A DNA stretch of 64,000 nucleotides from Rhizophagus irregularis (lineage: Eukaryota), in the NCBI RefSeq assembly GCF_026210795.1, contig NC_089435.1, forward strand, positions 3,100,001 to 3,164,000, in the 5' to 3' direction. The notes beneath the pieces are model-generated. The model did no database searches, had not been told where the DNA came from, and saw nothing but the letters and a program-made list of their open reading frames with translations. The number at the start of each line of letters is the position of its first letter. Position 1 is the first letter of the stretch. Positions 6,616 to 63,710 of the stretch are shown here, one piece after another. A program made the translations under genes and the position numbers.

Positions 6616-6650
6616 GTGGTGTATCTACGGGAGGTGTAGATGCGAAACCT
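6606..6650 (+). promoter_or_regulatory. -1 programmed ribosomal frameshift signal (T TTA AAC plus stem/pseudoknot)
   Basis: Heptamer at 6606-6612 just before the gag TAA; pol is in the -1 frame; stem 6620-6628/6636-6644; loop AGGT can pair with ACCT 6647-6650. Confidence 0.8.
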
Positions 6651-9600: not shown

Positions 9601-9749
9601 CAGCGTTATGTCATTTGTTTAATACGGCTACTCCTATCGGAAGATTGGCCCGTTGGGTCATGAAGCTCCAAATGTATGATTTTGAAACCACACATCGCTC
9701 TGGCAAGAAACATCTTAACGTCAATAGTCTATCTCGGATTAGAATCTAG
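6606..9749 (+). pseudogene. pol: pol: aspartic protease, acidic/Cys-rich linker, reverse transcriptase, RNase H; in-frame TGAs at 6717, 7317, 8223
   Basis: LIIDSGA, LRFCVDYR, YPLPRID, MPFGL, YLDD, TDAS motifs, all in one frame. Confidence 0.93.
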
Positions 9750-9839
9750 ATATAAATCTCTTATTTTTATTACCACTCTTTAACATATTTTTTTTTTGAC
9801 GCCGATTTTTGGATAACCCACTGATTTTTAACCCAACCA

Positions 9840-14404: not shown

Positions 14405-15921
14405 TTGTTTTTTTAAGAGAGAATTTTTTTTTTTAAAAAAAAACCTTGTATACCATGATCGACGTTTTATTTTGTAATGACGAATCACATGACGAAATTT
14501 ATCAGCTGGAACATTGAATTTTGTTACACAATTATTAATTAAACGATATTTTAATTTATATTTTGGGTTATTTTATTAAAAAATTAATAAATTTGAAGAC
14601 TTTGACGGATGATACTAGGTTCATTACTATCGTCAAAGGATTGAATAGTAGTTGCAAAAAAGAATGAATTACAATATTTATAACTTTATCTTGAATAATT
14701 TTAAATACTTGAGGAGAAAAATTAATTTTATCACCATCATTAAACATTGTTATATTTCATAATTGTTAATGTAGTTTTAATATGTAAATTGATTTTACAA
14801 GAAAAACGTGAATAGAGTAAAACCTTTTATGATGACGTTAGTGCTTAAAAGGTTGCATTATAAATCATCCGAACTTTGACATCATTGGGAAAAAATATTC
14901 TGGTGTCCAGAATATATCTGGAAATTGTCATGAAAATTTGCGTCTAGAAAATGACTCGTTTTTGAGAACATCTTCCGCCTACAATTTGCTTAATTTTTAA
15001 CAGGATATTTTTCTAGGCATTTAGACATTTACTGGACAATTTCCGGACATTCTTTTTTATAGGGAATACCTTGAAATAAACGCTGTGTTATCACTAATTT
15101 GGTTTGGAATGATAACTAACGTCGGAGATGTCAAGCCGATTAGTTATGGCAAAAAGTCAAACAATCAAGATTTATACTGTAGGTGTTTCAATAATATTGT
15201 AACAAAATATATATGTATCACTAATAATTCCCAATAGAAAATTAGTAATAAAAATGTAATTCTGGTAAAATAATGTAAGAGTTTCTTAAGGATAAAAATC
15301 TATCAAACAAATAACGACAAAATACAAAGGTAAAACAAGTAAAACACGCGAAAAGTTTAATACTGAAAAAAAGAAACTAACAATCAAATCAAATAATACT
15401 TCGGATAACACAATCTAAACTCTCTGTTAGATCTACTCAGGTGTTGACAACCTTTATTCAAAAGAAAATATTGCCCTATATATGTTTACATTTTCATACA
15501 TGACAGTTTGAACTTATCAATATTATCCTATTATACTAATATGATTATCAATCAATTGTTCTTTTCTCATTGCAATTATCTGTAAAAACCTTTCTATTAC
15601 CATTTTGTATAAGTTCCATAAGTCTATATGATTCATCAACTATGTAAATCTCAAGAAACTTCTCTAGCTAACTAATAAAGCAATTTTACTAATGTTATAA
15701 TAATTAAACTGATACTTATAATTGAATATTTATGAGTCAAAAGTAATAATAATACTAAAAGTGGTTAATTAATGTAAGTAACTAATAAAACTAAAATATA
15801 TATAAGAAATGTTTCATATTGTAATAAACTCAGTCATGATGGGATTTCTGCGCACTGCATCATGTGACTTGTTCGATCTTCATGGGTAACCCTAACAATA
15901 ATTTTAAATAATCCTATCTAA

Positions 15922-19951: not shown

Positions 19952-21454
19952 TTATTTCTTAACAACTAGAAAAACTTCATAATCATCCGTTTTAAATTTA
20001 TTTAACGGTATACCTACATCAGGATAAGAACTGCTATAACTCCTATACCATCCATTGTTAACAGACAAACCTAAATCATTTCCACTACCAAACAACGGAC
20101 CATAGTTAATATTCCCACCATAGATAGAAAACTCATCACCATTACTATATCCTACTTTTGCGCTTTGTAGGTTATCTTTATTTGCAAATGAGAAAATAAA
20201 GCTATCTCTTGTAGACTTCCATGCACTATTTGAATCCCCATAAAGAAGATTGTATCCTCCAACTATTTGCTCCGAATTTGCAATCTTTACTATAACTATA
20301 GTAGCTCCTTTATTATCACATTTAGCATGAAATGTCGCAATTGTATTACCATCCCTACTAGCACGATAAAGTAAATTGAAATTATAAGGAACATTCTTTA
20401 CATCATAGTATGACTCATTTTTCTTTTCAATCCAGCTAGAAAAAATAGCAAAATGTTTGTTACCAACGATAACAGAATCATAAACACATTTTGGTTTCCT
20501 GGGAGATTGTAAATCCACATTCAATTTCTCATCTGGTGCCATGTGAAATACAAGTATACTATTAACTATATCCTTTGGCAATATTTCTTTAAAAGGATAT
20601 ACTTTAGTAACAAAATCTGCTGAGGGGATTTGATAAAATCTTATTAACGGAATAAATCTATGAATGGTTCTTTCCATAATTACAATTTCTTCTTTATTCC
20701 ATTTATTAACATCTTGTTGAATAGTAGGATGCTGAGAAAAACACCACTTAATCAAGCTATTCCATATAATAATTTCATCCAATGACAAATCATCTCTTTT
20801 TAAAAGTAATTCTAATAAAGGTGCTTTTAAATTGATGAATTTATCAGATTTAAATAATAAATCTGGTTTAGTACAAATTACTTCAAGACAATAATTCCAT
20901 AAATCTGTAAAAGTTTCATGTAAATAGATTGTTTCAAGAATTTCGGTAGGATTTTGTTGTAAAAATTCATGTTGATGTTTAATAAAATATTCCTGAATAC
21001 AAATCACTAGTCTTTGGATTTTAAGTTCATCCGCTGTCGCCAAAAGCTTTAGAATATCTGGTCCCGGCAATTTCTCCAAATCTATCTTTCCACAATAAAT
21101 AAACCTAAATATTAAATGAATATTGCGTCATTAATTTTGACATAGACTGTATATAATATTATGTTTACTTTTAACTTTATTATTACTTGTTTTTTATTAC
21201 CTTAAAATAATTTTAAAAAATTGAGGAGAAATGTTAGGAAAATTAAAAATATATTTTCCATCCTTTTTCTTGGTCAATTCTTTAGAAAAAGCCGTACGAA
21301 AATATTGAGACCTGATACATAAAATAATTGAATGTGAATGTATTTCTTCTACATTTTTATTTTCACCGGCGTAGATAATAACGTTATATTCTTCATCAGT
21401 TTTAAGTAAATTTTCATAATCATCAGCAAGTTCCTGAAAATATTCAAAGGACAT
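19952..21454 (-). CDS. BTB-BACK-TLDc protein, about 468 aa, intact; exons 21454-21201 and 21104-19952
   Basis: BTB (VIIYAGE..HSIIL..RSQYF); GT-AG intron joins ILR-FIYCGKIDL in frame; TLDc (LLYRASRDG..FHAKCDNKG..IVGGYN..DYEVF). Confidence 0.93.
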
Positions 21455-27207: not shown

Positions 27208-28495
27208 CAGTCGCCTCGGAAAGTATCGCCCAATTTTTCGTTGTGTAATGATACACCCAATTTAAATTATTTATACCCCTATTTTTATTATTTTAAATGT
27301 TTTCCTCATAATTTTATGACCTGATGAACACGTTGCACAGTTAAAAAAATTATGTCACATTATACCGAATTATCTCCTCTGGAGAAAGGAAAAATACTAG
27401 CATATATGGAAAATTTTAACCCTGCACAAATAGCAAGAAAAATGGGGCGTGACCCTACCACAATACGTAGATTTATTGACAAATACAAGAAGACAGGGGT
27501 GACTGAAAATTTACCACGATCAGGATGGCCACCTGCTCTCAATAATAATGAGAAAAATGCACTTATAAATGAAGTTAAGAAGAATAGACGCGAACCTTTA
27601 CATGAAATTATTAATACATTGGGCTTAAGTTGCAGTCTAACAACTGCTAGACAGACACTATATGATGCTGGAATCCATTCCCATGTTGCAGCAAAAAAAC
27701 CTTTTGTATCAAAAAAGCATGCATTAGCTCGTGTTAGTTGGTGTGAGAAATATAAAGAAAAAACAATCCAGGATTGGAACCAAGTTATTTTCTCTGATGA
27801 ATCAAGTGTTGAGATTGGCAAGCAGTCAAGACAGATAAGAGTTTGGAGACATACAGGGGAAAGGTTTAACATTGAATGTTTGACACCTACTTTTAAAAGT
27901 GGTCAAAAATCAGTTATGGTTTGGGGATGTTTCCTGGAGGAATAAAAGGACCATTAATTTTTTGTGATGAAAATAAAGAAGGAGATGAAAAAATCAATTC
28001 AAACACTTACATTAGAATCTTAAATTCACATTTATATCCATTTCAACATACAGTTTGCGAATTAACAGGAAGAGCTGCAATTTTCCAACAGGATAATGCA
28101 CCTATTCATACCGCGAAAATAACCAAAAATTGGTTGAAAAAGAATAAAATTGCAATTATTGATTGGCCAGCAAATTCTCCTGATTTAAACCCAATAGAGA
28201 ACATCTGGAAACAATTAAAAGACAATATCCAGGCCCGTAAGACCTTTCCAAGAACTGTGAGTAAACTTAAAGTTGCACTAAGTGAAGAATGGGAAAATTT
28301 GGATTGTTCCATTTTTGAAGAGGTTGTTGCTTCGATGCCACAAATAATCAATGCAGTGTTAGAAGCAAGAGAAGGGCCAACACATTATTAGTTATTTTAG
28401 AAATTATTTTTTTACGTAAAGTTTAATAAAAATCAATAAAATTTGGCTATTTTTGGTATAAATTTTAAATCGGGCAATACTTTCCGAGGCGACTG
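27208..28495 (+). mobile_element. Tc1 (DD34E) DNA transposon
   Basis: TIRs CAGTCGCCTCGGAAAGTAT(C/T)GCCC; TA TSD at 27206-27207 and 28496-28497. Confidence 0.96.
27352..28391 (+). pseudogene. Tc1 transposase with a single frameshift near 27933
   Basis: HTH N-terminus; FSDES, VMVWGCF, FQQDNAPIH, WPANSPDLNPIENIW; 34 residues between D and E. Confidence 0.93.
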
Positions 28496-29144: not shown

Positions 29145-29520
29145 GGATATTATTGTCCATAATGAAGGACATTATTGTCCTCACTTTGTAAGACCATGGT
29201 GGTCCTGGAGGACATTATTGTCCGCGCATTATTGGAGGACCATGATGGTCCTCACCATGGAGGACATTATTGTCCTCACATTACATTATTGGAGGACCAT
29301 GATGGTCCTCACCATGGAGGACATTATTGTCCTCACATTACATTATTGGAGGATCATGATGGTCCTCACCATGGAGGACATTATTGTCCTCACATTACAT
29401 TATTGGAGGACCATGATGGTCCTCATCATGGAAGACATTATTGTCCTTGCATTATTGGAGGACCATGATGGTCCTCACCATGTAGGACATCATTGTCCTC
29501 ACATTATTGGAGGATCATGA
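29145..29520 (+). repeat. 57-bp tandem array of GAGGAC...GTCCTC palindromes (left TIR)
   Basis: Unit GGAGGACCATGATGGTCCTCACCATGGAGGACATTATTGTCCTCACATTACATTATT. Confidence 0.92.
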
Positions 29521-30499
29521 TAGTTCTTATTCTATGAATAATTGAAGGACTAATAAATAGTAAAAAATGATAAATATGTAATTTGTAAATTTAAAAAAAT
29601 TACATATTCAGTTGGCATAAAGTTCTAATCATACAAAATATAATAGAATACCTGTATTTACCACTTATTTTATAATAATAATAAAAAATAAAAAATGCCA
29701 ATAAATTTTATTACACATGATTTTATAAAAAACCAAATTGTAAAATTTTAAATTGCTTCTAAATTAATATTTAAGTAGCTTTCCATATAAATAACAAAAG
29801 ATGATTTATTTGACCAAAATGATGAAATTACATTTTGAAATTAATTTGAAATAGAAAAAAAAAATTAGAAATTAGTATTATTACAAAAAACATATTTTTT
29901 CCTCCAATATTATACCTGCCTTATAAAAACTGAAATTTAAGTAGTTTTAACCTTGCTTAATAACTTTGCTTAAATATAAAATGACCATTTCATTTGACTA
30001 AAATAATGAAATTATACTCTAAATTAGTAAGCAAAAAAATAAATCATAATTTTTTCTATAAATATACTTGTAAAAATTAAGTAATAGCATAATAAAAATA
30101 TATTAATAGTAGAGAATTACTAAACTTAACCTGGGGGAATTTCCCTTTATTTCAATTTTTAATTAAAATATTGACTTGTATAGTAATTTAAGAATAAGAT
30201 TATATGTAAATTTATGAAAAGAAAAGGTTTTATTAAGTTAAAAAGGGTAGTTGTTCAGATGGTTTTTGAGAAAATTACATAATTTTGATTTTATAGTTAA
30301 ATTGTATTTTTCATGATAAAAATTTTTTTTAAAACCAAAAATTGCCAAATTTTTATGCGATTAATATCCACTTATATTTATTTTATATATTTCATAAAAA
30401 AAGTTTATTTTTTTTAAATTTTTAAGGGGGGAGGAATTATCCCCCCGGTTAAGATTAGCAATACTCTTAATAGTAAATATAAATATATATTATGTGACC

Positions 30500-31075
30500 A
30501 TAAAAAAAATAAATAAAAACAAAAAAAAATAACAATAACAAAAAAAAATAACAATAAAAAAAAATAACAATAACAAAAAAAAATAACAATAATAACAAAA
30601 AAAACAACAATAACAAAAAAAAAAACAATAACAAAAAAAAAACAATAACAAAAAAAAAAATAACAATAACAAAAAAAAAAAACAACAATAACAAAAAAAA
30701 AACAACAATAACAAAAAAAAAAAAACAACAATAAAAAAAAAAATAACAATAACAAAAAAAATAATAAAAAAAAAAACAACAATAACAAAAAAAAATAACA
30801 ATAATAAAAAAAAAATAACAATAACAAAAAAAAAAAAATAACAAAAAAAAAACAATAACAAAAAAAAATAAAAATAACAATAACAAAAAAAAAACAACAA
30901 TAACAAAAAAAAAAAAATAACAATAACAAAAAAAATTAACAATAACAAAAAAAAATAACAATAAAAAAAATAACAATAAAAAAAAAATAACAATAACAAA
31001 AAAAAAAAATAACAATAAAAAATAACAATAACAAAAAAAAAAAAATAACAATAACAAAAAAATAAAAAAAAAAGG
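30500..31075 (+). repeat. Low-complexity (TAACAA-TAAC-A(n)) minisatellite
   Basis: Directly visible; explains the spurious F/L/C-rich ORFs. Confidence 0.95.
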
Positions 31076-31593
31076 AAAAGAAAAAAGAAAAATAAAAAAC
31101 CAATCATTACATACAGTAAATGATTTGCATGATCATGACAATTGATCACTTATAAACTTAAAATTTACATTATTTTAAATTAAAATGATCATTTTTTTTC
31201 ACCTCTATCATATTTAAATTTATTTTTCTCTCTTTTCCAACTTTTTTATTTTAAAAACTTTATTATTTTCCTTTATTTTAATTTTATTATTTATTTTATT
31301 TATTTTCTTATTTTTTTATTTTTATTTTTATTTTTATTTTTATTTTTTGTTATTATTTTTTTGTTTTTATTTTTTTTTAGTTTTTTTTTACTAAAAATAA
31401 CCATATAATACATATGGCCTGATTTGTCTACCTTTAATTAAAATATTAATTTTATTACATTTTTATTATACAAAATACTATATAATATACAGTAAATTGG
31501 AAATGAGTATTAAAAATTTTTATTTAATGTTATTATACTATAATTTGGTAAATATTTCTTTTAAATTAATATAATTCTTAGTACTTACTATAT

Positions 31594-34984: not shown

Positions 34985-35330
34985 AGAACCATCATAGTCC
35001 TTTAATAATGTGAGAACAATCAATAATGTAATGTGAGGACAATAATGTCCTATCATGGTCCCCCAATAATGTAATGTGAGGACAATAATAGTGTCCTCTA
35101 TAGTGAGGACCATCATGGTCCTCCAATAATGCGTGGACAATAATGTCCTCCATGGTGAGGACCATCATGGTCCTCCAATAATGTGCGGACAATAATGTTC
35201 TCCTACATAGTAAGGACAATAATGTCCTTCATAATGAGGACTAACATGGTCTATTGTCCTCAATATGAGAATGATAATGTCCTTGATGGTGAGGTCCAGT
35301 ATAGTCCATTATTATGGACAATAATATCCT
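34985..35330 (-). repeat. 57-bp palindromic tandem array (right TIR)
   Basis: Reverse complement of 29145-29520. Confidence 0.9.
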
Positions 35331-35576: not shown

Positions 35577-37580
35577 ATGCTATTAACTCAAAAATCTTTT
35601 GAAGAAATTTATGATTTTAATGCGTACAATGTTGTTTCATATTTACAAAAAGAACACTGTATAAGTGGAGAAGATTCTCAAATTTTCTACCGGAAAAACA
35701 TCGATGGCCATACGCTTCTTCACTTGAAATATGAAGAACTTAGGAATTCGTTCAAACTTATGCATGAACAAGCTAAAAAAATAGAAGAGTTGATTGAGAA
35801 GATTAATGAAGAGAGAAATTGGGAAAAAATTTGTCGAGTGAAATCACCAATAGATATTAAGGACAGATTAGAACACTGTGGCATCCACATTGATTCCAAC
35901 CAAGCTGCCAAATTGGAGGAGGCCAATATTACCGGAGAAGAATTAATGTTCGAGGAACCTGAACATTTTTCAAAGTTAGGACTCGGCAATGTCTTGACAC
36001 AAATTAAATTTATTAAAAAAAGAATAGGTGAAAATCAAGTCCGAAAAATTTTCTTATTATTAAAAAAGTTTGATGAAATACTCATCTAAGTCTCTAGCAG
36101 GAAAATTGATGCTACAACGTGCGTTCTGCAATAGTCTTGTTCGTGAAAACGATGAGATTACATTCTGGAAATCAACAAATGAGAAAGAATCTCTTGCCAA
36201 ATTATGTGCGCGCAATGGAATAGCATATATAAAATATAATAAAAAAATATTTCTTAGTTTCAATAAGTTTATGAAGGCATATCTTAAGGTATTTGCTAAT
36301 TTTAATAAATGGGGTGTTCAATGACTTCAATTGTACTAATTGCATGCTCGCCACAGATAAATCATTCTTCATTTCAAAAACAACGTTTCAAATTTTTTAT
36401 CGGAGATAGATCTTACGAAATGCTGAAGCAAGAACTAAACCTGAATGAATATTTGCCTGAAAAAATGAACGAATTAAATGTAACAGGTTCGGAAACTTTA
36501 TCACGTTTAAATATTAAAATGAGAATTATCTATCTATTATTAACCCACTATATGGTACATCTAGAAAAATCTGGATCATCGCATGAAAGTGTGTCTACAA
36601 CGTCAGAGAATATGGAAGAAAAAGAATATATTACGAATCAAGCTGTTCTGCTTGGTTTTATTCGAGATAAATTCGTTCAATGGCTTTCATTTATTTCGGA
36701 TGATATATTAGAAACCCAGACGCTCGAATATTGGCTTCTTTCCTATGTTTCCGAAATGGAGACCAATATCTGGAATGAAAACATCTCACCAAGTGCTTGG
36801 TTATCATCTTGTTTTGCAATCACCCCAGAAACAGCTGATACCATTGTCAATAGTGTTTCAGAAGGTTTTTTGCAAAATCAAACACCCCAATACTGGATTA
36901 ATGAATGGATTTCACAACAAACTAACCCTCTTTCATGCGAATTTAATTCTTTCATTGAAAGTGCACCTGAAAATACCTTGGTTTCATATGGAGGATTACC
37001 AAATCTTTTTGTTGTAAATAAAATACCAGCAAATGGTGATGATGAGGAGCTTAATTTACTTTTGTCTGAGAAATCATACCAGTCCTCTGATAATCATACC
37101 TATTACTTTCACACCACTGACCGGAGGTCTTCTGAATCTATTATCAAAGATGGCATTGATGTGAGCAAGTGTCATGGAAATCAGGACTTTGGTAGATCTG
37201 CATCATTTCACCTTAATGACGAATTTAGATGGGCAGCCGAGTGGGGGCGAAAACGTTTTCTGAACCCAAATTCATGTGTAATATTGGTGTATGACATTCC
37301 TGCTGAATTACTGCTAAAACACGATCACCTTGATCTAAGTCAAGATCTTGAGAAATGGAAGCGTGTGGTGCGAAACTCTCGTGACGGGAAATTTAACGAA
37401 GCTGATGATCACTTCTCAGTATATGGTCCCCAAGCAGAAAATGTTAACATTTTGATAAAGAATAAACGAGCAACACCTCGACCATCTTCTAGCAAAAATC
37501 AGTTGGCACTTAAAGGTAGAAAATTGACAAAGCATGTTGATAAACAACTTATAGGAGCTATCATTTATAGGACAAAATAA
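35577..37580 (+). CDS. Spliced gene: two SAM-like domains, unknown middle region, C-terminal DUF3990-like (ADP-ribosyltransferase-fold) domain
   Basis: NIDGHTLLHL and NITGEELM..FSKLGL SAM-like motifs; predicted introns about 36028-36097/36100, 36289-36356 and probably 36487-36564 keep frame; YFHTT..GID..DFGRSASFHL..W..VV..R..VYGPQA..NQLAL. Confidence 0.75.
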
Positions 37581-39686: not shown

Positions 39687-41260
39687 GATCGCCGGTCATG
39701 TGATTATTCGATTAACACTATTATAAAAAAAATTTACTTTTTTTTTTGCTTCCCGGTAACTGGCGTCATTTTAATATTATTAAGTAATAGTTCTATCAAT
39801 TTTTTTTAGTAATAACAATAAGTTTTGGTGATAAGAATATTTTTTTTTTGTAACAATAGATTTGATAATGGGAATTTTTTTTTGATATAAATTTTTTTTA
39901 AATATATTACTATGATATAATCTTCTGTAATAATACATTCGTATGATAATATTCTTGATGAGAAATTTATATTTTTTTTTGGAACAATTAATTATTCGAG
40001 TCTGAATAAACCATAAATTCTATAATACTTAATATAATAATCATATTGTAAATATAACTACTGTATGTTCAGTATTATATTAAATACAAATCTACATGAT
40101 TGTAAAAGTTAAATAAAATAATAATGCTCTAACCATTATATATTAATAATTAGTAAATACATTAGCTCATTAAACTAGATAAATTCATTACTGTAGAAAG
40201 TTATTTATGTTTTATTATAAAGAAAATTTTAAATTTTAATGAAAGCCTAATTAATAGACTCTAAATATAGGTAATTAGGTGCCATATTACTTTATTACTG
40301 TAACATTGTTTTTTTTAATCCGGTAAATGGTTTATTTTAAGATATCTATCAAGACTTTGCTTGTCCAATTTAATTGAATATTTCACCCTTTGTCATTAAT
40401 AATTTTCGCAGTTGGTTTATCATTCTCATAGTTCTCTGCAAAATCCAAGATTTAAATCTAAAATATTATATTCCTTTATCAATGAATTAATAAAAAAATT
40501 AGTTACGTTCTAATTATAATTCTTAAATTAAATGTAAATTTACGAAAGTGACTTAAAATTTGTAGAAGCTTACCATAAAAATTAGAAATCCTATCTTATT
40601 GAACGAAATGTTTTTTTTTTTAGAATTGTGTGCACATTAAATTTATAATTAATTATGTTTGATATTTGCACAACGGAAATCTCTGCGTAGTAATCATTGT
40701 TTTTTTATTGTTCCTCTACATTCTCGGACAACAAAGGCTTTTTAAAAAGGTTTTATGGGTCATATAATTTATATATTAATTGATTAAGAAAGTCAAAAAA
40801 AAAATTTTATTATTTTCACGCTAAGTTAATGCAACTGCGCCATATTATTGTCCCCACGTGAATTTTCTGCAAGAAGGAGCCGAGCAATACATAGAAAGGT
40901 AACCCAAATAAAGTGTAGATCCTTCCTTTTTGTTAATGACAGGCGGCATTATGTCATTCCCTGAAGAGATACATAGAGCTAATAGTGAATGAGTGCCAAT
41001 CTCTTGTTACCTATTTATATATTGCAAAGTTCCGTTACTTCGATACCTATAGAATTTATTTATTCTTTGATGGAATTCTTGTTAAATTTCATTCCAAAAT
41101 AAGCTTCTAGATTATTTACTCGCAAGGAATGAATGCATAGAATTTTTCATGGAAATTTGGAAAAAAATTCCGTGTTAAATTTTACTACATATATATATAC
41201 TAGAAAGTTTACTTGAACGTTACAAATAAATGAAATTTTTATTTTAGATAATTTGAAGTA

Positions 41261-43289
41261 ATGGAGCAACCAGTATATTATAAACATAAAATTGACTTTT
41301 TAATATCGGACAACACGCCTTCAATTCAGCCGACACAAAACTCACAAAACATATATAAGAAATGTAATGAATGTAATAGAAAAAGAAAAATTTTTGATAA
41401 AAGTCACGAGATTTGTCACGTGTGTTACAATATAAAGACTATACTTAAGCCTAAACAAAGTGGAAACAAAGTTGTTGACGATTTTATCAGATATACTCAA
41501 AGTAATTATGCTTTTATAGAAGATGGTAAAATGGAGCTTATTCCTTATGATCAATTCACCAATATAGAATTTATTGCTGAAGGAGGATTTAGTAAAATTT
41601 ATAAAGCTACTTGGGTTGATGGTCCTATCAATAATTGGAATAGGATTAAAGATGATTATTGGAATATTACTCGTAGAAAAAATTATACCGTTGTTCTCAA
41701 AAAGCTTAACAATTCTAAAAACATTACACCCAAGGAACTGAATGAGGTATGGCAAATTCTATATGTTTTAAATCTTCAATATGATGATGATAAATTAATT
41801 AGTTCAAGATATTTTATCAGATTTATTCAGATAAGAATGCACATAAAAGTTATATTAGTAATTATTTTGGAATTACTCAAGATCCTATTACCAAAGATAT
41901 TATAATTATTATGCCATATTATAATTCAGGTGATTTGATACATTATATAAGTAACGAATTTTATAATATTAATTGGGGAACAAAGTTGAATAAATTATGT
42001 TATATAGCAATTGGACTTAATAATATACACAAAGCAAAAATTGTTCACAGGGATTTACATAGTGGAAATATCTTCTTCGATGGACATACTGCGCATATAG
42101 GTGATCTTGGAATAAGTAAATCTGCAATTGAATGTACAGAAGATAGCAATGAGAATTATGGTATTATTCCTTATATGGCACCAGTTATTTTTCAAGGGCA
42201 AAAATATACAGAAGCTTCGGATATATATAGTTATGGGATGATTATGTGGGAATTTATGACAGGTAGAAGGCCTTTTTGGAATGAAAATCATGATATTGAA
42301 CTTATAATCAAAATATGTGATGGTTTACGACCATCAATTGTTACAAATGCACCTAAAGAATATATTGAATTAATGAAAGAATGCTGGCATTCTGATCCAG
42401 AACAAAGACCAAATGTTAATAATATATCTGGCAAAATTTGGGCAATGTTTATAAATGAAAATGATAGTACAAGTTTAACTAAAATTATAAAATCATCAGA
42501 TATTGGACCTGTAACAATAAATAATCTAGGCGCCGTTTATAAGAGTAGACCTTTAAGTCACATGATTCAATCTGCAATGTCATTAAGGAGTTCAAGAAGT
42601 CAATCTATCGGTAAATAATTTTATTATACTGAATACTGCAGAAAAATTCTGACTTTTTTTTTAATAATTATTTAGATCCATTAGATCCATTTTATTATTA
42701 TCAGAAAAATAGCAAGGCATCTTCTGCTGGTAATTACTCGGGTTTCGTTTAATGTGACGTTTGTATTAATATTAATAATATTATAATTTTAAAGATAAAA
42801 GAAAGGTTGATAAAGGTTCGGTTGAAGACAGTAATATCAACGGTATGATAAAGTTAGATTCCATGCATAATTATCTAATAAAAATTGATAACCCTATATA
42901 TTTTATTGTGTCTTCAATTATTTTAATTTTCATTTACGAATTTTTTTTAAAAATACAATTTAGATCAAAGTATTAAAAGGAGAAAATTATTTGAGAATGA
43001 AAATTATGGTAAGCAAATTCTATTTTTAGATAAATAACATTTTTATTATTATGTAAATTCTTAACTTTAAATAGATTTAAATTCTTCTTTAGATTATCTT
43101 ACGAAAGAAATCGAATTAGATATTAACGCAAATATGAGTCAACAACAACATAACGGTGAGTAAATACTCTGTTTTTCTTTTAAAAATATATAAATAATAG
43201 TTTTAATTTTTTTTTAATTTATAAAAATAGAATATGTTACCAAGGAATTTGATATAGATATTAATAATATTGATGAGTCAAATTTATAG
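41261..43289 (+). CDS. TKL-type protein kinase; exons 41261-41746, 41803-42610, 42676-42729, 42795-42842, 42964-43008, 43093-43155, 43231-43289
   Basis: CxxC..CxxC N-terminus, SGNKVVDDFI, EGGFSKIYKA, VVLK, HRDLHSGN, DLG, APV, ECW..RP; all GT-AG junctions join in frame. Confidence 0.9.
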
Positions 43290-52178: not shown

Positions 52179-53772
52179 GGGAATTGGTAAACTTCGCCTG
52201 GGTCGATCACGTGGCAGATTTAATACTTTTGATTGGCCAGATTTGCCACATGATCACTTTAATTGTAGGCTCGAGGTTCGTTTCCTTGGTTCTTTCGGTC
52301 TCAAGGTATTTTTCTTTTTTCTTTTATTTTTATTACTAACTTACATTCTTACACTTTGTTTCTTACTAACTCTATTTCATTATTTAGTCCTTCCGGTTCT
52401 GCAATTAAGGTACAGTTGTTTTTCACTTTACATTTCGTTTCTTATTTTTTATTTTTTTTTTTGTTTCTGGTTCATATTTCATTTTTAACTAATTTTATTT
52501 CATTTTTTTTTAGATCTTTTAGTTCTTTCGGTTCTACAATTAATAAAGGTATTTTTTTTTTATTTATTTTTTTTTTGTTTCTATCTTATATTTCGTTTCT
52601 TACTAACTTCACTTTATGGTTTATTTTTTACCTGGTTTCCTATCATTATCTTTTGCTACCCAACCTTCTATGAGATTTTGATCGGATACCCTAACCGATA
52701 TGGGAAATTTACCATTGTTTGAACTATTTTTACTACGTGAAAAAAACACTCGAATGCACGTGATCCGGTGATCTGTAGTAATTGACGTATTTTTTGTTGC
52801 CACCTTGCCACCTTATAAAATTTTATCATGATCTTTTTTTATTTTTTGTCTCTCATCATTTTTCACCTCCTATTACTTCTCATTATTCCATCCTTTTCGT
52901 CTCCCATTATTTCTATTACATCTTTTCATTTTCCATTATTTCTTTTTCTCTCCTGTTTACTTCCCATCATTTCTTTTTGTCTCTCATAACTCCTTTTCGT
53001 CTCCCATCACTCCTCTTCATTTTCCCATAACTTTTTTTGTCTCTCGTCACTTCTTTTCGTCTCCCATCACTCCTCTTCATCTTCCCATCACTCCTTTTCG
53101 TCTCCCATCACTCCTCTTCATCTTCTCATTATTCCTCTTCATCTTCCCATTGCTCCCTTTCATCTCCCATCACTCCTTTTCGTCTCCCATCATTCCTCTT
53201 CATCTACCCATCACTCCTTTTCGTCTCCCATCACTCTTCTTCATCTTCTCATTATTCCTCTTCATCTTCCCATCGCTCCTTTTCATCTCCCATCACTCCT
53301 TTTCGTCTCCCATCACTTTTCTTCATCTTCCTATAACTCCTTTTCATCTCCCATCATGTCCTATTTCTCCTTTTGTTTCCTATCAATTCACATTACTCTT
53401 TTTTACTCCCTTTCATCTTCTATTACTTTCCATTACTTCATTGTTATTTCATTTTTTTATTAGCATCTTTCTTCTTGATCATTGAAATTTACTTAATATC
53501 TTTCTTTTATTGTATCACTTCATTAAAAATAAATGGTGATTTTTTGCTTTAAAATCGAAAACGTGTGATTTAAATTTTAATATTTGCAAATAAATTTCAT
53601 TAGATAAGATTATTTTAAATAAATATGTTTGCAAAAATTTTTTTTTTAAAATATCTTTTGCGATAAAATTTTAAGTTTAGCCGATCAAAAATTAGCTAAG
53701 TTGATTCTTTATATATTGTACATCATGTGACATATTTGGAAAAAAAACCCCCGGCGATGTTTAACAATTCCC
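52179..53772. mobile_element. Non-autonomous TIR element with 4-bp AATT TSD (Sola-like)
   Basis: TIR GGGAATTG(G/T)TAAAC(T/A)TCGCC; AATT on both sides; the empty site is seen in the other Helitron copy near 24010. Confidence 0.75.
52975..53360 (+). repeat. Pyrimidine-rich ~20/21-bp minisatellite (CTCCCATCACTCCTTTTCGT / CTTCCCATCACTCCTCTTCAT)
   Basis: Directly visible. Confidence 0.9.
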
Positions 53773-54826: not shown

Positions 54827-57800
54827 ATGGACCAATGTATTGGTAAAGGTAAAGCATATAACATGAATAATAATATAAATTAGAATTATTCAAAATTATT
54901 AAAACAAACTTGCAATATAATAAAACTAGTTTTGTGTGATACCAAAGAACCCAAAGGTAAATATAATATACAAAACAAAATTGAAATATTAAGATTTTTA
55001 TTTATTAAAAAAACTTAATTATAAATAATCAAATATATTAAACCAAATTTGCAATATAATAAAACTAGTTTCCAGTAATATTGAAGAATTTGAAGAAAGT
55101 GGCACTGAAGAATTTGAAAGAAGTAGCATTGAGAAATTTGAAGAAAGTGGCACTGGAGAATCTAAAGGTATATCAAACAAGCTAAAATATTAAATTTTTA
55201 TTTATAAACAATTCAAATACTATCTAGGCTAACTATTTTATATAAAAATTATATTAAATATTTAGCTTGTAAGTTAATATAATGAATTACTCATTATTTT
55301 TATTGTATTCCATATAACTAAATAATTTATTTAATGATTAATAATACTGTAGTTGGTAAGTAATTGTTATCGGTCATGTTGTAGATGATAACTGATTTAC
55401 CACTAGGATTGCTATGTATATCATATGACCGAAGGCCGCATGATAGAGTAGCATCCTAGTGTAAATCAGTTATCATAAACATGACTGATAATAAAGTTAT
55501 TGGATATGTATGACGTAAAGCAACTGAGACCTTTTTCGCGTATCTTATTTATTATTTTATAATAATGTGATCAAAATTTTGTATATCACTAATTATAAAG
55601 TGACCAAAATTTGTGTATCACTATTATAAAGTGATCAATAACATACGTGAAAAATGTCCAGTGCTTACATAGAACATATACAATAAGTTATCAGTTATTT
55701 AAACCTTTAGTCCTTTACTACTTTATTTATTCTAACATAACATTCAAATAACTAAATTCTTTGTTTAAATAACTATTTAATTATTAATTATATTACAGAT
55801 AGTAAGTTACAATATATATATTATATTTATTTGTTTAATATTTTATATAATTCAACTAATTATATTCTTAATTTAAATAACTAGATTGTAAGTAATATAT
55901 ATAATATACAGTAAATACTTTTATATTATCTTTATATTTAACTAATTAATAATTAATAATACTACAGGGTGTAAGTTATATGATGTCTATATTGATATTA
56001 TTTATATAATTTAACAAATTTCTTTATTTAAAAATTATTAAATAATATAGGGTGTAAGTTATTTATTTAATTCTATTATTACTTATTGTTATAATATTTA
56101 CATATAATTTAGACTAACTAATTTCTTTATTTAAAAAATTATTAAATAATATAGTTCGTAAGTTTTTTATTATTACTTATTGTTATAATATTTACATATA
56201 ATTTAAACTAACTAATTTCTTTATTAGTTCGTAAGTTAATTTATTTAATTCTATTATTACTTATTGTTATAATATTTACATATAATTTATACTAACTAAT
56301 TTCTTTATTTAAAAAATTATTAAATAATATAGTTCGTAAGTTATTTATTTAATTCTATCATTACTTATTGTTATAATATTTACATATAATTTAGACTAAC
56401 TAATTTCTTAAAAAATTATTAAATAATATAGCTCGTAAGTTATTTATTTAATTTTATTATTACATATTGTTATAATATTTACATATGATTTAAAGTTTTC
56501 AACTAACTAATTTCTTTATTTAAAAAATTATTAAATAATATAGCTCGTAAGTTATTTATTTAATTCTATTATTACTTATTGATATAATATTTACATATAA
56601 TTTAAACTAACTAATTTCTTTATTTAAAAATTATTAAATAATATAGAGAGTAAGTTATTTATTTAATTCTATTATTCTTATTGTTATAATATTTACATAT
56701 AATTTAAACTATCTAATTTCTTTATTAGTTCGTAAGTTATTTATTTAATTCTATTATTACTTATTGTTATAATATTTACATAATTTAAACTAACTAATTT
56801 CTTTATTTAAAAAATTATTAAATAATGTAGGGCGTAAGTTATTTATTTAATTTTATTATTACTTATTGTTATAGTATTTACATATAATTTAAACTAACTA
56901 ATTTCTTTATTTAAAAAATTATTAAATAATATAGTTCGTAAGTTATTTATTTAATTCTATTATTACTTATTGTTATAATATTTACATATAATTTAAACTA
57001 ACTAATTTCTTTATTTAAAAAATTATTAAATAATATAGAGAGTAAGTTATTTATTTAATTCTATATTCTATTATTACTTATTGTTATAATATTTACATAT
57101 AATTTAAACTATCTAATTTCTTTATTTAAAAAATTATTAAATAATATAGTTCGTAAGTTAATTTATTTAATTCTATTATTACTTATTGTTATAATATTTA
57201 CATATAATTTAAACTAACTAATTTCTTTATTTAAAAAATTATTAAATAATATAGCTCGTAAGTTATTTATTTAATTTTATTATTACTTATTGATATAATA
57301 TTTACATATAATTTAAACTAACTAATTTCTTTATTTAAAAAATTATTAAATAATATAGTTCGTAAGTTATTTATTTAATTCTATTATTACTTATTGTTAT
57401 AATATTTACATATAATTTAAACTAACTAATTTCTTTATTTAAAAAATTATTAAATAATATAGAGAGTAAGTTATTTATTTAATTCTATATTCTATTATTA
57501 CTTATTGTTATAATATTTACATATAATTTAAACTATCTAATTTCTTTATTTAAAAAATTATTAAATAATATAGTTCGTAAGTTAATTTATTTAATTCTAT
57601 TATTACTTATTGTTATAATATTTACATATAATTTAAACTAACTAATTTCTTTATTTAAAAAATTATTAAATAATATAGCTCGTAAGTTATTTATTTAATT
57701 TTATTATTACTTATTGATATAATATTTACATATAATTTAAACTAACTAATTTCTTTATTTAAAAAATTATTAAATAATATAGTTCGTAAGTTATTTATTT

Positions 57801-60800
57801 AATTCTATTATTACATATTGTTATAATATTTACATATAATTTAAACTAACTAATCTCTTTATATTTAAAAACATTATTTAATAATATAGCTCGTAAGTTA
57901 TTTATTTAATACTATTATTACTTATTGTTATAATATTTACATATGATTTAAACTAACTAATTTCTTTATTTAAAAAATTATTAAATAATATAGTTCGTAA
58001 GTTATTTATTTAATTCTATTATTACTTATTGTTATAATATTTACATATAATTTAAACTAACTAATTTCTTTATCTAAAAAATTATTAAATGATATAGTTC
58101 GTAAGTTATTTATTTAATTCTATTATCACTTATTGTTATAATATTTACATATAATTTAAACTAACTAATTTCTTTATTTAAAAAATTATTTTGTAATTAT
58201 TTTAGTTGGTAAGTCATAAGTTATTTATTTAATTCTATTATTACTTATTGTTATAATATTTACGTATAGTTTAAACTAACTAATTTCTTTATTTAATAAA
58301 TTATTTAATAATATAGAGAGTAAGTTATTTATTTAATTTTATTATTACTTATTGTTATAATATTTACATATAATTTAAACTAACTAATTTCTTTATTTAA
58401 AAAATTATTTTGTAATTATTTTAGTTGGTAAGTCATAAGTTATTTATTTAATTCTATTATTACTTATTGTTATAATATTTACATATAATTTAAACTAACT
58501 AATTTCTTTATTTAAAAAATTATTAAATAATATAGAGAGTAAGTTATTTATTTAATTCTATTATTACTTATTGATATAATATTTACATATAATTTAAACT
58601 ATCTAATTTCTTTATTTAAAAAATTATTAAATAATATAGAGAGTAAGTTATTTATTTAATTCTATTATTCTTATTGTTATAATATTTACATATAATTTAA
58701 ACTAATTAATTTCTTTATTTAAAAATTATCAAATAATATAGAGAGTAAGTTATTTATTTAATTCTATTATTACTTATTGTTATAATAATTACATATAATT
58801 TAAACTAACTAATTTCTTTATTTAAAAAATTATTAAATAATATAGAGAGTAAGTTATTTATTTAATTCTATTATTACTTATTATTATATTATTTACATAT
58901 AATGTAACTAACTAATTTCTTTATTTAAAAATTATCAAATAATATAGAGTGTAAGTTATTTATTTAATTCTATTATTACTTATTGTTATAAACTAACTAA
59001 TTTCTTTATTTAAAAAATTATTAAATAATATAGGGCGTAAGTTATTTATTTAATTTTATTATTACTTATTGTTATAATATTTACATATAATTTAAACTAA
59101 CTAATTTTTTTATTTAAAAAATTATTAAATAATATAGGGCGTAAGTTATTTATTTAATTTTATTATTACTTATTGTTATAGTATTTACATATAATTTAAA
59201 TTAACTAATTTCTTTATTTAAAAAATTATCAAATAATAGAGTGTAAGTTATTTATTTAATTCTATTATTACTTATTGTTATAAACTAACTAATTTCTTTA
59301 TTTAAAAAATTATTAAATAATATAGGGCGTAAGTTATTTATTTAATTTTATTATTACTTATTGTTATAGTATTTACATATGATTTAAATTAACTAATTTC
59401 TTTATTTAAAAAATTATTAAATAATATAGAGAGTAAGTTATTTATTTAATTCTATTATTACTTATTGTTATAATATTTACATATAATTTAAACTAACTAA
59501 TTTCTTTATTTAAAAAATTATTTTGTAATTATTTTAGTTGGTAAGTCATAAGTTATTTATTTAATTCTATTATTACTTATTATTATATTATTTACATATA
59601 ATGTAACTAACTAATTTCTTTATTTAAAAAATTATTTATGATCTAGCTTGTAAGTGTCTCTATTGTTATATATTTTATATAATATTTATTGGTTAACTGA
59701 ATTCTTTTATTTGAAAAATATCTGTTACTTTAGTCGGTAAGTTGTAAGTCATAGGTTATTATATGTATTTATCTAAAAATTAAGACTTATATTTCATTAA
59801 ATCCCTATTTAAATTTTAGAGTAAGTAATAATTTATTTTGTATAAATTATAATATAATCTACAATATAATTTTAACTATTTAAATTTATAGATTTGGGAA
59901 AAGTGGAAATACAATTATAGATGATTTTGTTCTTAAAAAACGATTAAAATGGATTCCTTATAACAAATTTAAAAATGTTGAATATCTTAATGAAGGAGGA
60001 TTTGGTACTATATACAAAGCTAATTGGTCAAATGGAGTTGGAGAAGTAATACTTAAATGTCACAAGAATTTAAATGAAAATTTAAATGAATTTTTGAAAG
60101 AAGTATGATAGTATATTATTTTCTATTTTTAATTTAAATTAAAATTTATTTATAATAATAAATTATTATTATTATTTTATAGTGGGAATATCATACAAGT
60201 GTTTTAAGTTCAATCAATATTATAGATATTTATGGATTCACAAAAGATCCAAATACATCGAAATATATGGTAGTAATGGATTATGCAAATAAAGGTAATT
60301 TAAGAGAAAATTTAACAAGTATAGTCAAAAATAATTGGAATCAAAAATTATATATGTTGTACGAAATTATTTCTGGACTTAGTAAGATACATGAAAAAAA
60401 TCTTATTCATTGTGATTTTCATGATGGTAATATTTTAAATCATAGTAATAAGGATAAGGATAAAATTTATATTAGTGATTTAGGATTATGCCAACCTATA
60501 AAATCATTTTTGGAAAAATATGATATTTATGGTGTTATATCATTTATGGCTCCTGAAGTTTTAAGAGGCAAATCTTATACTCCAGCTAGTGATATATATA
60601 GTTTTTCTATGATTATGTGGGAACTTACATCTGGGGTACCACCATTTAATAATAGAGCACATGATATTCAACTTAGTTTGAGTATTTGTAAAGGTGAACG
60701 TCCTGAAATTATTGAAAATACTCCACAATGTTATGTAGATTTAATGAAAGAATGTTGGAATGAAGATTCATCAAAAAGACCATCTTCTAAAGAAGTATTA

Positions 60801-61378
60801 GAAATTATTGAAAAATGGATTTTCCGTCCTGATGATGATGAAATTAATGAAGAATTAGAAAGCAACATTATGGAATTTATAAATGCACCAATTGGGCATA
60901 ACAATCTTGCTACTAAATCTCATCCTAAAGCATGTTTTACAAGTCGCTTACTTGATTTTACTAGTAAAAAATTGAATGAAATTCTTGAAAATGAAAATAC
61001 ACAAGCATCTCATGCAAGTCATTCAGATTTGAATGATTGTGTAATTAGAGGAGATTTGATGTCATTAGGTATATACTATAATATATAAAAAATTAATCTT
61101 GCAAATTATTTATATGAAATTAATTAATTTATTTAATTATTCAGATGAGAATACTAGTAAAAAGTTGAATGAAATTCCTGAAAGTGAAAATTCACAAGCT
61201 AGTGTAAAAGCAAATGAAATGCTAGTAAGTGAAGATTTGAATGATTATATAATTAAGGGTCTGGGGTCATTAGGTATGTACTATGATATATAAAAGAATT
61301 AATCTTGTAAATTATTTATGTGAAATTAATTTTATTTAATATTTAATTTATTTAGATATTAAAGCAAATGAAAATTAA
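54827..61378 (+). CDS. TKL-type protein kinase with a microexon array; exons 54827-54842, 54930-54956, 55069-55167, [42 x 3 nt], 59820 (1 nt), 59892-60102, 60183-61068, 61145-61273, 61356-61378
   Basis: MDQCI-VLCDTKEPK-VSSNIEEF..GESK-[array]-EFGKSGNTIIDDF..KWIPY..EGGFGTIYKA..ILK..HCDFHDGNIL..DLG..APE..ECW..RP; every junction is GT-AG and in frame. Confidence 0.85.
55266..59820 (+). other. Array of 42 putative 3-nt microexons plus one 1-nt exon
   Basis: Every unit reads yAG|NNN|GTAAGT; the homogenised unit carries a CTAAC/CTAAT branch site about 35 nt upstream of the AG. Confidence 0.85.
56010..59640 (+). repeat. ~104-bp tandem repeat (one intron + one 3-nt exon), about 35 homogenised copies
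   Basis: Consensus GTAAGTTATTTATTTAATTCTATTATTACTTATTGTTATAATATTTACATATAATTTAAACTAACTAATTTCTTTATTTAAAAAATTATTAAATAATATAG-NNN. Confidence 0.97.
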
Positions 61379-62899: not shown

Positions 62900-63710
62900 A
62901 ATGTTCGTGGAGAATTTTTTCTTTTTTTTTTATTAGATTTTTTATAAAATAAAATTTTGGTGTTTTTTTTAATATAGGTAAAGCTCTTCTTTGATGGCAA
63001 TTTCTTTGAGTAATTTTCTTTAATAGAAAAGAATTTTTTTTTTGATAAAATATTTCGTTCGAGAATTTTTTTTATTGATGAGGGAAATTTCCTTTAATAG
63101 AGGAGTTTTTTTTTATGGATAATTTTGTTAAAGAATTTTTAATAAGGAGATTTTTTTTGACAGATAATTTCTTTGGAATTTTTTTTTTAACAGGAGAGAT
63201 TTATTTTTTATAGAGAATTTCATTGAGAATTTTTTAATAGGGAAGAATTTTTTTTCTTGATAGATAATTTTTTTAGAAAATTATTTTAGCAGGGATATTT
63301 TTTTTTTGATAAAGACTTTCATTAAGAATTTTTTTAACAGGAGAGATTTATTTTTGATAGAGAATTTCATTGAGAATTTTTTAATAGGGAAGAATTTTTT
63401 TTCTTGATAGATAATTTTTTTAGAAAATTATTTTAGCAGGGATATTTTTTTTTTGATAAAGACTTTCATTAAGAATTTTTTTAACAGGAGAGATTTATTT
63501 TTGATAGAGAATTTCATTAAAGAATTTTTCTTTAATAGGGAGATAAATAATATTGCTGAGAATCTTTTTATAGAAATTACATTGTGGAATTTTTTTTTTA
63601 ATAGAAAAGAAATTATTTTTTTTGATAGTTCGTTAGTAAATTTTTTAACAGAGGGGATTTTTTTTTTGATAGAATTTCGGTAAAGAATCCTTTCTTAATA
63701 ATAGGGAAGG
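62900..63710 (+). repeat. Degenerate ~30-bp tandem repeats with a recent ~146-bp duplication (63183-63520)
   Basis: TTTTAACAGGAGAGATTTA...GACTTTCATTAAGAA repeated. Confidence 0.75.

Follow-up and report, generated by a model that had tools for sequence, protein, structure and literature searches.

A tandem array of 42 three-nucleotide units, very likely spliced microexons, upstream of a kinase domain in Rhizophagus irregularis

A kinase gene of Rhizophagus irregularis, an arbuscular mycorrhizal fungus, carries, between its third exon and its kinase domain, a tandem array of 42 three-base units separated by introns, and these units are very likely spliced exons. The array lies in a 64-kb window (positions 3,100,001 to 3,164,000 of contig NC_089435.1), the whole stretch of DNA analysed here, whose own numbering is used throughout. 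We hold with high confidence that such arrays are spliced in this gene family, and consider it probable that the window copy itself is spliced and coding; the whole account, in which the spliced array varies a short peptide that lies between the kinase and an acidic tail predicted to be disordered, is favoured with moderate confidence. The device is known from NACHT-ankyrin genes of the truffle Tuber; the kinase host and the Glomeromycotina lineage appear to be new, and the phase-1 coding logic may be.

Scanning the whole window on both strands with the pattern [CT]AG-N(0..9)-GTAAGT returned 42 matches with a three-base spacer, all on the forward strand at 55266..59734; there were none on the minus strand or outside the array, and every other spacer length gave zero or one match. 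The array of microexons between GT-AG introns (55266..59736, forward strand) reproduces exactly the number of units, their coordinates and order, and the 11 distinct triplets described by an earlier reading of the letters alone (the sequence-only reading). The triplets are TTC (11 units), AGA (nine), CTC (five), TTG and GGC (four each), CTT, GGT and AGT (two each), and ATA, ATT and TCG (one each). In the core the period is about 104 nt, and units also repeat at a higher order, in groups of two and four that have common indels. From the end of exon 3 (55167) to the start of the kinase exon (59892), all 44 intervals have the form GT...YAG, the units tiling this gap as the same reading had proposed. 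A branch-like CTRAY site falls within the final 60 nt of 38 of the 44 introns, and 43 of them measure 70-109 nt; the single longer one (443 nt) holds a long imperfect hairpin (55364..55494, forward strand; arms 55364-55400 and 55461-55494), likely an inserted element, with no further copy in the window.

Within the 34 core units, mean diversity is 0.047 per intron column (maximum 0.40, 101 columns) versus 0.71, 0.51 and 0.59 at the three triplet positions, in agreement with the description of a near-invariant intron around three varying bases. Among unit pairs with identical 32-nt flanks, 58% of 98 have different triplets. The outer introns have diverged from a core intron (59-73% identity) but still keep both splice signals, as had also been claimed, and intact signals flank all 33 units found by a probe to the intron interior, which is independent of the signals. 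Counting substitutions alone, conservation of the core signals is not significant (none of nine signal columns vary and 27 of 92 other columns do; P=0.11); with indels counted P=1e-5, a value inflated because a single deletion spans many columns.

The gene model, on the forward strand throughout, opens with a predicted exon 1 (54827..54848; 22 nt, with an ATG and a phase-1 end), whose N-terminus also opens the public models P0077 (POG74106.1) and P0032 (POG70100.1), and continues with a predicted exon 2 (54930..54956; 27 nt, matching P0077 and P0024). The predicted exon 3 (55069..55167; 99 nt, phase-1 end) encodes an acidic Glu/Ser/Gly tract made of 24-nt repeats; it had no match in a Pfam search, and disorder is predicted for the homologous tract in P0032 (residues 1-62, pLDDT<50 in the AlphaFold model). 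The array is closed by a candidate one-nucleotide exon (A, 59820..59820), the sole match in the window with a one-base spacer, which turns phase 1 into the phase 2 required at 59892: the reading frame closes without this exon and is open with it. Kinase exon A (59892..60102; lead-in, Gly-rich loop, catalytic Lys and alpha-C) had no Pfam match when searched alone, and contains no in-frame Met, so that upstream exons are needed. Within it lies an alternative phase-1 acceptor at 59921, via which exon 3 can join the kinase in frame with no microexon at all, as in P0077; the case for a strictly required one-nucleotide exon is therefore weaker. Kinase exon B (60183..61068; catalytic loop, activation segment, C-lobe and tail; Pfam PF07714, E=5.8e-35) is followed by a predicted 129-nt exon (61145..61273), which partially duplicates the end of exon B and matches the tail of P0016, and by a predicted last coding exon with the stop (61356..61378), an ending that P0016 shares. 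With all 42 triplets and the one-nucleotide exon, the predicted product has 507 amino acids, and microexons account for 127 of 1521 coding bases.

Judged by its sequence, the kinase domain is a member of the expanded PF07714 (TKL-type) repertoire of R. irregularis. Pfam returned only kinase families for this gene, and no NACHT-ankyrin; exon B is 98.9% identical to P0016 (POG63478.1) over 279 amino acids, and all 120 listed protein matches to the kinase carry Rhizophagus as source name. The predicted translation retains intact catalytic motifs (Gly-rich loop, Lys, alpha-C Glu, HCD, DLG and APE), and among the solved structures closest in sequence are those of RIPK1, MLT/ZAK, TAK1 and CTR1. The PF07714 repertoire of this species is reported to be much expanded (PMC10234402, PMC6123716), with 2,533 kinases given for the genus (PMC10234402), and the accessible text of these two accounts of the expansion does not mention microexons. 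A second kinase in the window (41252-42615) is 36% identical to the array-preceded one and has a Cys-rich CxxC..CxxC segment where the array sits in the first.

The array exons are in phase 1 on both sides, and each residue is therefore composed of the last base of one exon and the first two of the next. The sequence-only reading had called them codon-sized exons: they are indeed three bases long, but they are not codons, since they straddle codon boundaries. The window triplets can encode 17 amino acids when read in phase 1, versus six in phase 0. The same reading held that any subset of exons keeps the frame, which is correct only with the one-nucleotide exon or the acceptor at 59921, but random subsets contain a stop in 8-20% of cases when the final two triplets are kept and in 18-42% under free skipping. 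A stop arises from 5.5% of ordered triplet pairs in the window repertoire; when the triplets are shuffled, 8% of the orders are likewise free of stops, so that the open reading of the full array is only weakly unexpected, and under skipping stop avoidance is not enriched in the window copy. The stop-free peptides theoretically possible number 1.1e10.

Expression evidence comes from homologous copies of the gene. In the raw poly(A) runs X23 and X36, 210 and 39 loose read ends, respectively, lie exactly before the acceptor at 59892, and none lies at 59921 among the loose ends listed. In both runs the consensus of these loose ends finishes in CTT-TTG-A, unlike the intron end, sharing six of seven bases with CTT-TCG-A, the window's spliced equivalent; the one change is synonymous (TTC/TTT in phase 1, both Phe). 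The consensus has a period of three, and its upstream part parses as ATC/ATG/GTG/GTC-type triplets that are open into the kinase, where the depth of homolog RNA is about 150 per mate direction (59904-59970). Agreement within the consensus is 0.58 and 0.72, low values that fit paralog mixing (the reads stem from several gene copies) as well as they fit skipping. Among the 2110 X23 reads placed, 23 are at least 99% alike and 1661 are 90-95% alike, and nearly all differ from the window at 59929: most of the reads come from paralogs or alleles and the RNA is not from the window copy, so that splicing is supported for the family. With homologous-copy RNA that ends in joined triplets plus an A at 59892, the proposal that the triplets are spliced microexons gains support. 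A few reads (depth 1-7) at 59703-59836, in the last introns, point to some intron retention or pre-mRNA in the homologs. None of the reads observed in these runs connects exon 3 with the array. An X23 signal at 59435-59568 (depth 14-39) was set aside as array RNA, given its uniform loose ends on both sides and its agreement of 0.98; it would stem from another transcript that matches over a short AT-rich stretch. Run X1 was rejected as RNA, as it covers introns and behaves like DNA; X1 and X15, which have the same species label, provide DNA-like contigs with window-like introns around ATC, ATG and ATA triplets.

A metagenome pattern scan yielded at least 106 stretches at at least 104 loci, of which 23 were kept and 81 failed the filter, being mostly GTAA-type microsatellites and short-period repeats; two loci (L011 and L051) failed the filter yet are counted among the low-GC loci, and L023 and L024 form one contig. 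Two others with a period of 46-47 (L057 and L092) may be plain minisatellites. In L006, L018, L059 and L104, an array made of other triplets stands directly before a related kinase exon, all four acceptors being phase 1, and phase-1 upstream donors are present in L006 and L061; the kinases of L018 and L059 are 49-53% identical to that of the window. Introns resemble the window unit in seven of eight low-GC loci (z 2.1-3.6), and no such likeness was seen in three high-GC arrays or four ordinary introns. Read in phase 1 with full inclusion, the window and seven of the eight low-GC loci are stop-free; read in phase 2, six of these nine contain stops. The triplet repertoires of L059 and L061 give no stop in any order. 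Unrelated genes, of NACHT-ankyrin and GTPase-like type, also carry microexon arrays; six ORFs flanking high-GC arrays had no Pfam match.

The arrays seem to be misread in public Rhizophagus models, and the N-termini of this subfamily's models are indicated to be truncated or in the wrong frame. Low-complexity I/L/V/M/G strings precede the kinase in 9 of the 120 public models listed, and [SCGR]K does so in 30 of 78 scorable models, as would result from predictors calling the triplets and using the second GT of GTAAGT. P0077 and P0136 jump to the later acceptor, reading continues into the intron in P0168 and P0169, and protein searches returned no public model that carries the phase-1 peptide. 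The array segment of P0032, the public sequence modelled by AlphaFold, is probably in the wrong frame, so that use of the model here is restricted to the disordered tail and the kinase fold.

Two other readings concern the structure itself. The triplets might be whole codons in phase 0, reached through a 7-nt first and a 5-nt last exon and encoding a hydrophobic, membrane-like segment: P0032 and eight similar public models are read so, AlphaFold models the P0032 phase-0 string as a long helix (residues 67-95), and the window triplets are also open in phase 0. However, the RNA consensus ends in a single A and not in the 5-nt form, which contradicts such a reading for the majority of reads, and the four metagenome kinase loci have phase-1 acceptors without a 5-nt exon, beside the phase-1 donors of L006 and L061; we find it scarcely credible. 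That the array is bypassed or dead in the window copy, with exon 3 joined to 59921 or read through and the units no more than an unspliced satellite, has parallels in the two public models that skip to a 59921-type acceptor and the two that read through, and RNA of the window allele across the array was not seen in the runs examined. Such decay is very unlikely in view of the splice signals kept in every interval, including outer introns so diverged from the core, the intact state of all units found by the independent probe, and homolog reads that break at 59892.

Two further readings accept splicing and differ over what it achieves. If splicing were constitutive, each copy would make one peptide, and diversity would exist only in DNA, among alleles, nuclei and paralogs, through unequal crossing-over. 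The stop-free full-inclusion reading in the window and most related arrays fits this, as skipping makes stops; so do the two- and four-unit repeats with common indels, which signify recent expansion at the DNA level, and paralog mixing can explain the low agreement of the RNA. On the other side stand the reported alternative splicing of Tuber arrays, as far as the accessible parts of the sources go (PMC4986451, PMC13449251, PMC10197012, PMC9815663), the stop-proof repertoires of L059 and L061, as combinatorial use would favour, and the improbability of error-free joining of 42 near-identical splice-site pairs; strict constitutive splicing is thus unlikely, though it is the weightiest of these four alternatives. 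Neutral expansion, in which an intron-plus-triplet minisatellite was amplified in a tolerant disordered linker and its units were retained only since splice-site damage would break the kinase frame, seems distinctly improbable. Exon-intron units are duplicated at other places in the gene (the exon 3 repeats and the 3' exon), the expansion to 2,533 kinases in the genus (PMC10234402) may relax selection, and the window copy is not enriched for stop avoidance under skipping; but more than half of the unit pairs with identical flanks have different triplets, with differences at all three positions, triplet diversity exceeds the intron mean more than tenfold, and arrays persist with different triplet sets in kinases diverged by about 50% and recur in unrelated genes.

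Our preferred account is that the array would vary the short peptide joining the predicted-disordered acidic tail to the kinase, and a diversity-generating role is reasonably probable. Unequal crossing-over and conversion among near-identical introns would duplicate, delete and reorder triplets in DNA, as the higher-order repeats suggest. Exon skipping could add a second layer of diversity within each transcript, and that it occurs routinely is marginally favoured. Removing or reordering an exon would recode the neighbouring residue too, a junctional diversity absent from phase-0 arrays, and the frame would be set by a near-constant anchor (Ala/Pro-Phe-Glu) formed from the last triplets and the one-nucleotide exon. 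In the most speculative step, the peptide would control the kinase and present non-self proteins with a variable bait or docking site. Bait or decoy regions occur in alpha-2-macroglobulin/TEP proteins (the bait), plant PBS1 and the NLRP1/CARD8 tripwires, which likewise have a variable exposed peptide beside a signalling or effector domain. By this analogy only, a recognition role is speculative and a non-self bait a tentative suggestion; the full combination, an RNA-level peptide library made by skipping, acting as bait or sensor for bacterial, mycoparasite or host-plant proteins and independent of the phase-0 arrays of Dikarya, is more doubtful still. If true, it would be a splice-based generator of junctional diversity in a fungus that feeds kinases, not NLRs, with theoretically some 1e10 stop-free peptides.

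Arrays of codon-sized (3-bp) mini-exons were described in the nank (NACHT-ankyrin) NLR genes of Tuber melanosporum (Iotti et al. 2012, as cited in PMC4986451, PMC13449251, PMC10197012 and PMC9815663), so that the precedent named in the sequence-only reading is real, as the accessible text of the four citing papers attests. By that text, the two systems have in common dozens of 3-nt exons, an expanded fungal gene family and a proposed diversification of a protein segment. They differ in that the host here is a Glomeromycotina TKL kinase and not an ascomycete NLR, that the array is N-terminal to a catalytic domain, whereas it lies in a C-terminal repeat sensor in Tuber, that a 1-nt exon closes the window array, and that alternative splicing is reported in Tuber but skipping only proposed here. 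The NACHT-ankyrin array of L023 has four stops in 27 junctions when read in phase 1, in which the window array is stop-free, and is therefore not phase 1. Compared with the Dikarya arrays of L023, L074 and L097, the window's intron unit scored at shuffle level (z -0.1 to 0.6), with no sign of a common origin. Our literature search found no report of codon-sized exon arrays in Glomeromycotina or in kinases.

Schistosoma micro-exon genes (MEGs) consist mainly of exons of up to 36 bp and have host-exposed products, and differential splicing has been linked to variation of their proteins (DeMarco 2010), according to the accessible part of PMC8293314. The window array resembles them in its run of short frame-preserving exons, here of 3 nt and phase 1 on both sides; it differs in that microexons are a small part of the coding bases and not most of them, the introns are tandem-repeated and the product is a kinase. 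Exons of a single nucleotide are reported, in the text available, from Arabidopsis (PMC4674806), from CYP621A of Fusarium (PMC12940212) and, 13 of them, from Coprinopsis cinerea (PMC12230235); as in the window, they reconcile exon phases and are missed by gene predictors, but they are isolated, whereas that of the window terminates a 42-unit array.

With these results, arrays of codon-sized exons, described before in ascomycete NLR genes, reach a distant lineage of fungi and a domain of an unrelated kind, and the different coding logic suggests repeated invention. The gene offers a natural case for how the spliceosome joins dozens of 3-nt exons and one 1-nt exon, and a hypervariable splice-assembled peptide on a kinase subfamily would be a concrete lead towards non-self sensing in arbuscular mycorrhizal fungi, bearing on the role of their huge kinase expansion. 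As a minor observation, 4 of the 12 public models that keep the N-terminal exons have Gly2 and the window copy has Asp2, which makes N-myristoylation a weak lead.

A pattern scan of both strands of the window found 42 matches to [CT]AG-NNN-GTAAGT, all on the forward strand between 55266 and 59734 and none on the reverse strand, with the triplets in the order and of the identity listed by the sequence-only reading. Spacers of other lengths (0 to 9 nt) gave at most one match each, the sole match with a 1-nt spacer being a candidate single-A exon at 59820. Every one of the 44 intervals between the end of exon 3 (55167) and the start of the kinase exon (59892) has GT at its start and YAG at its end; 43 of them are 70-109 nt long and one is 443 nt, and a CTRAY site lies within the last 60 nt in 38. 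Tandem Repeats Finder assigns the core (34 central units, each an intron and a triplet) a period of 104 bp and reports further, higher-order periods at 188, 219 and 424. In these units diversity is concentrated in the triplets and the introns are near-uniform: mean intron diversity is 0.047 (101 columns), the three triplet positions have diversities of 0.71, 0.51 and 0.59, and triplets differ in 58% of 98 unit pairs that share identical 32-nt flanks. The outer introns are, as that reading held, diverged with signals retained (59-73% identity to a core intron, both splice signals kept), and signals are intact in 33 of 33 units located by a probe from the intron interior. The core contains 16 distinct indel events, and GTAAGT and YAG are nevertheless retained by all 34 core introns; for substitutions only, signal conservation in the core is not significant (0 of 9 signal columns vary, versus 27 of 92 others; P=0.11). 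The 443-nt intron holds two imperfect hairpins (55364-55494 and 55528-55658), likely a small inserted element, of which the window contains no further copy.

Four sequencing runs were aligned to 59100-61100 at 90% likeness. From run X23 (raw poly(A)), 2110 reads aligned (23 at 99% or more, 426 at 95-99%, and 1661 at 90-95%), and because 1661 are only 90-95% alike, their source is mostly paralogs or other alleles. X23 reads reach a depth of about 150 per mate direction at 59904-59970; none cover the kinase intron, and the last array introns have a depth of 0-7. Immediately before 59892, 210 of its reads have a loose end (agreement 0.58), as do 39 reads of X36 (agreement 0.72), a run classed as RNA by an automated guess and whose depth also falls in the intron. 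The loose-end consensus of each terminates in CTT-TTG-A, which shares six of seven letters with CTT-TCG-A, the window's final two triplets plus the 1-nt exon; the one mismatch leaves the residue read in phase 1 unchanged (TTC/TTT). Upstream, the consensus splits into nine triplets per run, mostly ATC and ATG, with open translation into the kinase. DNA-like contigs with the same species label extend over the last array introns, and in them ATC, ATG and ATA triplets are flanked by introns resembling those of the window. These data support splicing of the triplets and the 1-nt exon at the family level, as the earlier proposal of spliced microexons predicted. This RNA support is for the family: paralogs mix in the consensus, so exon skipping lies beyond it, and it covers neither the window copy's own transcript nor its exon 3 junction. 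The array is a real feature and is very probably spliced.

Exons 1, 2 and 3 (22, 27 and 99 nt) encode an acidic tail, predicted to be disordered in a structure model of a homolog, and terminate in phase 1, while the kinase exon at 59892 lacks a Met and needs phase 2. With the 1-nt exon included the frame is open, triplets in or out, and with it omitted the frame is closed; an alternative phase-1 acceptor at 59921, used by the public Rhizophagus model P0077, provides a microexon-free route. The protein predicted with all 42 triplets has 507 aa, and the array peptide ends about 30 residues upstream of the Gly-rich loop. The kinase matches PF07714 and shares 98.9% identity with R. irregularis POG63478.1 across 279 aa; homologs among the matches listed are all named Rhizophagus (120/120), which places the window in R. 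irregularis or a near relative. The closest solved sequences include RIPK1, MLT/ZAK, TAK1 and CTR1. The gene grows via exon-intron duplication at both ends, as introns 1 and 2 share near-identical final stretches (54849-55068) and a 3' exon-intron unit is duplicated (61040-61340). At 54827-54848 the window copy encodes Met-Asp with Cys4; four of the 12 public models retaining N-terminal exons have Met-Gly, which we take to be a possible myristoylation motif.

Because the introns are in phase 1, a codon straddles two exons, its first base coming from the end of one and its other two from the start of the next. Ordered triplet pairs can reach 17 amino acids, versus 6 with triplets as codons, and in theory the array allows 2.5e10 different inserts and 1.1e10 peptides free of stops. 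The claim that any subset of exons keeps frame stands insofar as the frame is open with the 1-nt exon regardless of triplets, but is too strong, as 8-42% of random subsets carry a stop. A stop codon arises from 5.5% of ordered triplet pairs, and random inclusion (probability 0.1 to 0.9) gives a stop in 8-20% of products with the last two triplets kept and in 18-42% with these not fixed. Inclusion of all 42 triplets is stop-free, as are 8% of shuffled orders.

A pattern scan of metagenome contigs gave at least 106 stretches, from which 104 loci were taken; 23 pass an anti-microsatellite filter, and stop triplets are absent from all 23. At four loci (L006, L018, L059 and L104), 4-17 triplets stand immediately before the exon of a related kinase, which has a phase-1 acceptor, with no 1-nt exon in between; in L006 and L061 the donor upstream of the array is also phase 1. 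Introns of seven of the eight low-GC loci resemble the window unit more than shuffles do (z 2.1-3.6; L051, z 0.7). Neither three high-GC arrays nor four of the window gene's ordinary introns do so, and this difference suggests one origin within this lineage. With all triplets included, the phase-1 reading has no stop in the window or in 7/8 low-GC loci; the phase-2 reading meets stops in six of these nine. An array before the kinase is a feature of the family.

A low-complexity string of I, L, V, M and G precedes the kinase in 9 of the 120 public proteins listed (for example, POG70100.1, POG77171.1, PKC64656.1, and RGB39444.1 from R. diaphanus); in POG70100.1, 38 residues of this type link the acidic exons to the kinase. 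[SCGR]K occurs before the anchor in 30 of 78 scorable public models. As the window triplets, read in phase 0 via a 5-nt last exon, reproduce the same I/L/V/M/G and [SCGR]K pattern, we infer from the protein models that gene predictors find the triplets yet misplace the frame. Other public models start 3' of the array, skip it, or run from exon 3 into the intron.

The best reading of the array is as a diversity device for the linker peptide. Shuffling of units at the DNA level, visible as higher-order repeats, would diversify this peptide; exon skipping would probably add to its diversity, phase 1 would add junctional recoding of residues, and the array's 3' end would form a near-constant anchor. 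The macroglobulin bait, PBS1 and NLRP1 are models for a bait or sensor, a role that the array peptide might share by analogy with them and given the immune context of known arrays. Alternatively spliced codon-sized exons in Tuber nank genes are cited by PMC4986451, PMC13449251, PMC10197012 and PMC9815663, consistent with the NACHT-ankyrin precedent named in the sequence-only reading. One-nucleotide exons are on record for Fusarium (PMC12940212), Coprinopsis (PMC12230235) and Arabidopsis (PMC4674806), and Schistosoma micro-exon genes (MEGs; PMC8293314) serve as a comparison system. Kinase expansion in R. irregularis is covered in passages of PMC10234402 and PMC6123716; a term search of PMC10234402 found no mention of microexons. 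A search of mostly open-access literature turned up no account of arrays like these in kinases or in Glomeromycotina. Codon-sized exon arrays of Tuber are already known; here the lineage (Glomeromycotina) and the kinase host domain are new, and the array has phase-1 coding, a terminal 1-nt exon and family-level RNA support.

Arrays also occur in other genes. One contig (L023/L024) carries an alpha/beta-hydrolase, NACHT-type, ankyrin gene (L023:2307-8061) followed by 28 triplets of 11 kinds, the layout of the Tuber nank genes in another fungus; read in phase 1, this array has four stops. At L031 triplets precede ankyrin repeats. The high-GC arrays L074, L032, L010, L003, L072 and L097 (7-28 triplets, period 50-83) likely lie in host genes of Basidiomycota. 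In L074 and L032 the array follows an exon ending in phase 0, and the gene product resembles unnamed Basidiomycota proteins (score 0.97 for the L074 upstream ORF against such clusters) and points more weakly to G-domain families; the high-GC loci are a further host-gene context for triplet arrays. Similar-looking short ORFs lie 3' of the array in L010, L003 and L072. For seven additional arrays (L068, L091, L096, L098, L039, L084 and L095), no host gene was identified.

Elsewhere in the window, a second TKL-type kinase (41252-42615), 36% identical to the array kinase, has a Cys-rich CxxC..CxxC segment at the site of the array gene's peptide and no microexon motif upstream. The motif is likewise absent from the window's other tandem repeats (29206-29521 and 35021-35236, which are related; 30502-31099; 52960-53356; and 63106-63529). 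The reverse strand encodes a gene with BACK and TLDc domains (19955-21127; Pfam) and a second similar gene (13139-14572), and a 423-aa ORF at 36309-37577 has a weak DUF3990 match, under the curated cut-off. The segment at 27328-28388 is presumably a Tc1/mariner-like transposase, in two frames. ORFs at 5200-10958 read like what we take to be the gag, protease, reverse transcriptase and integrase of a Ty3/Gypsy retrotransposon, and short matching repeats at 4105 and 11323 may mark its LTRs.
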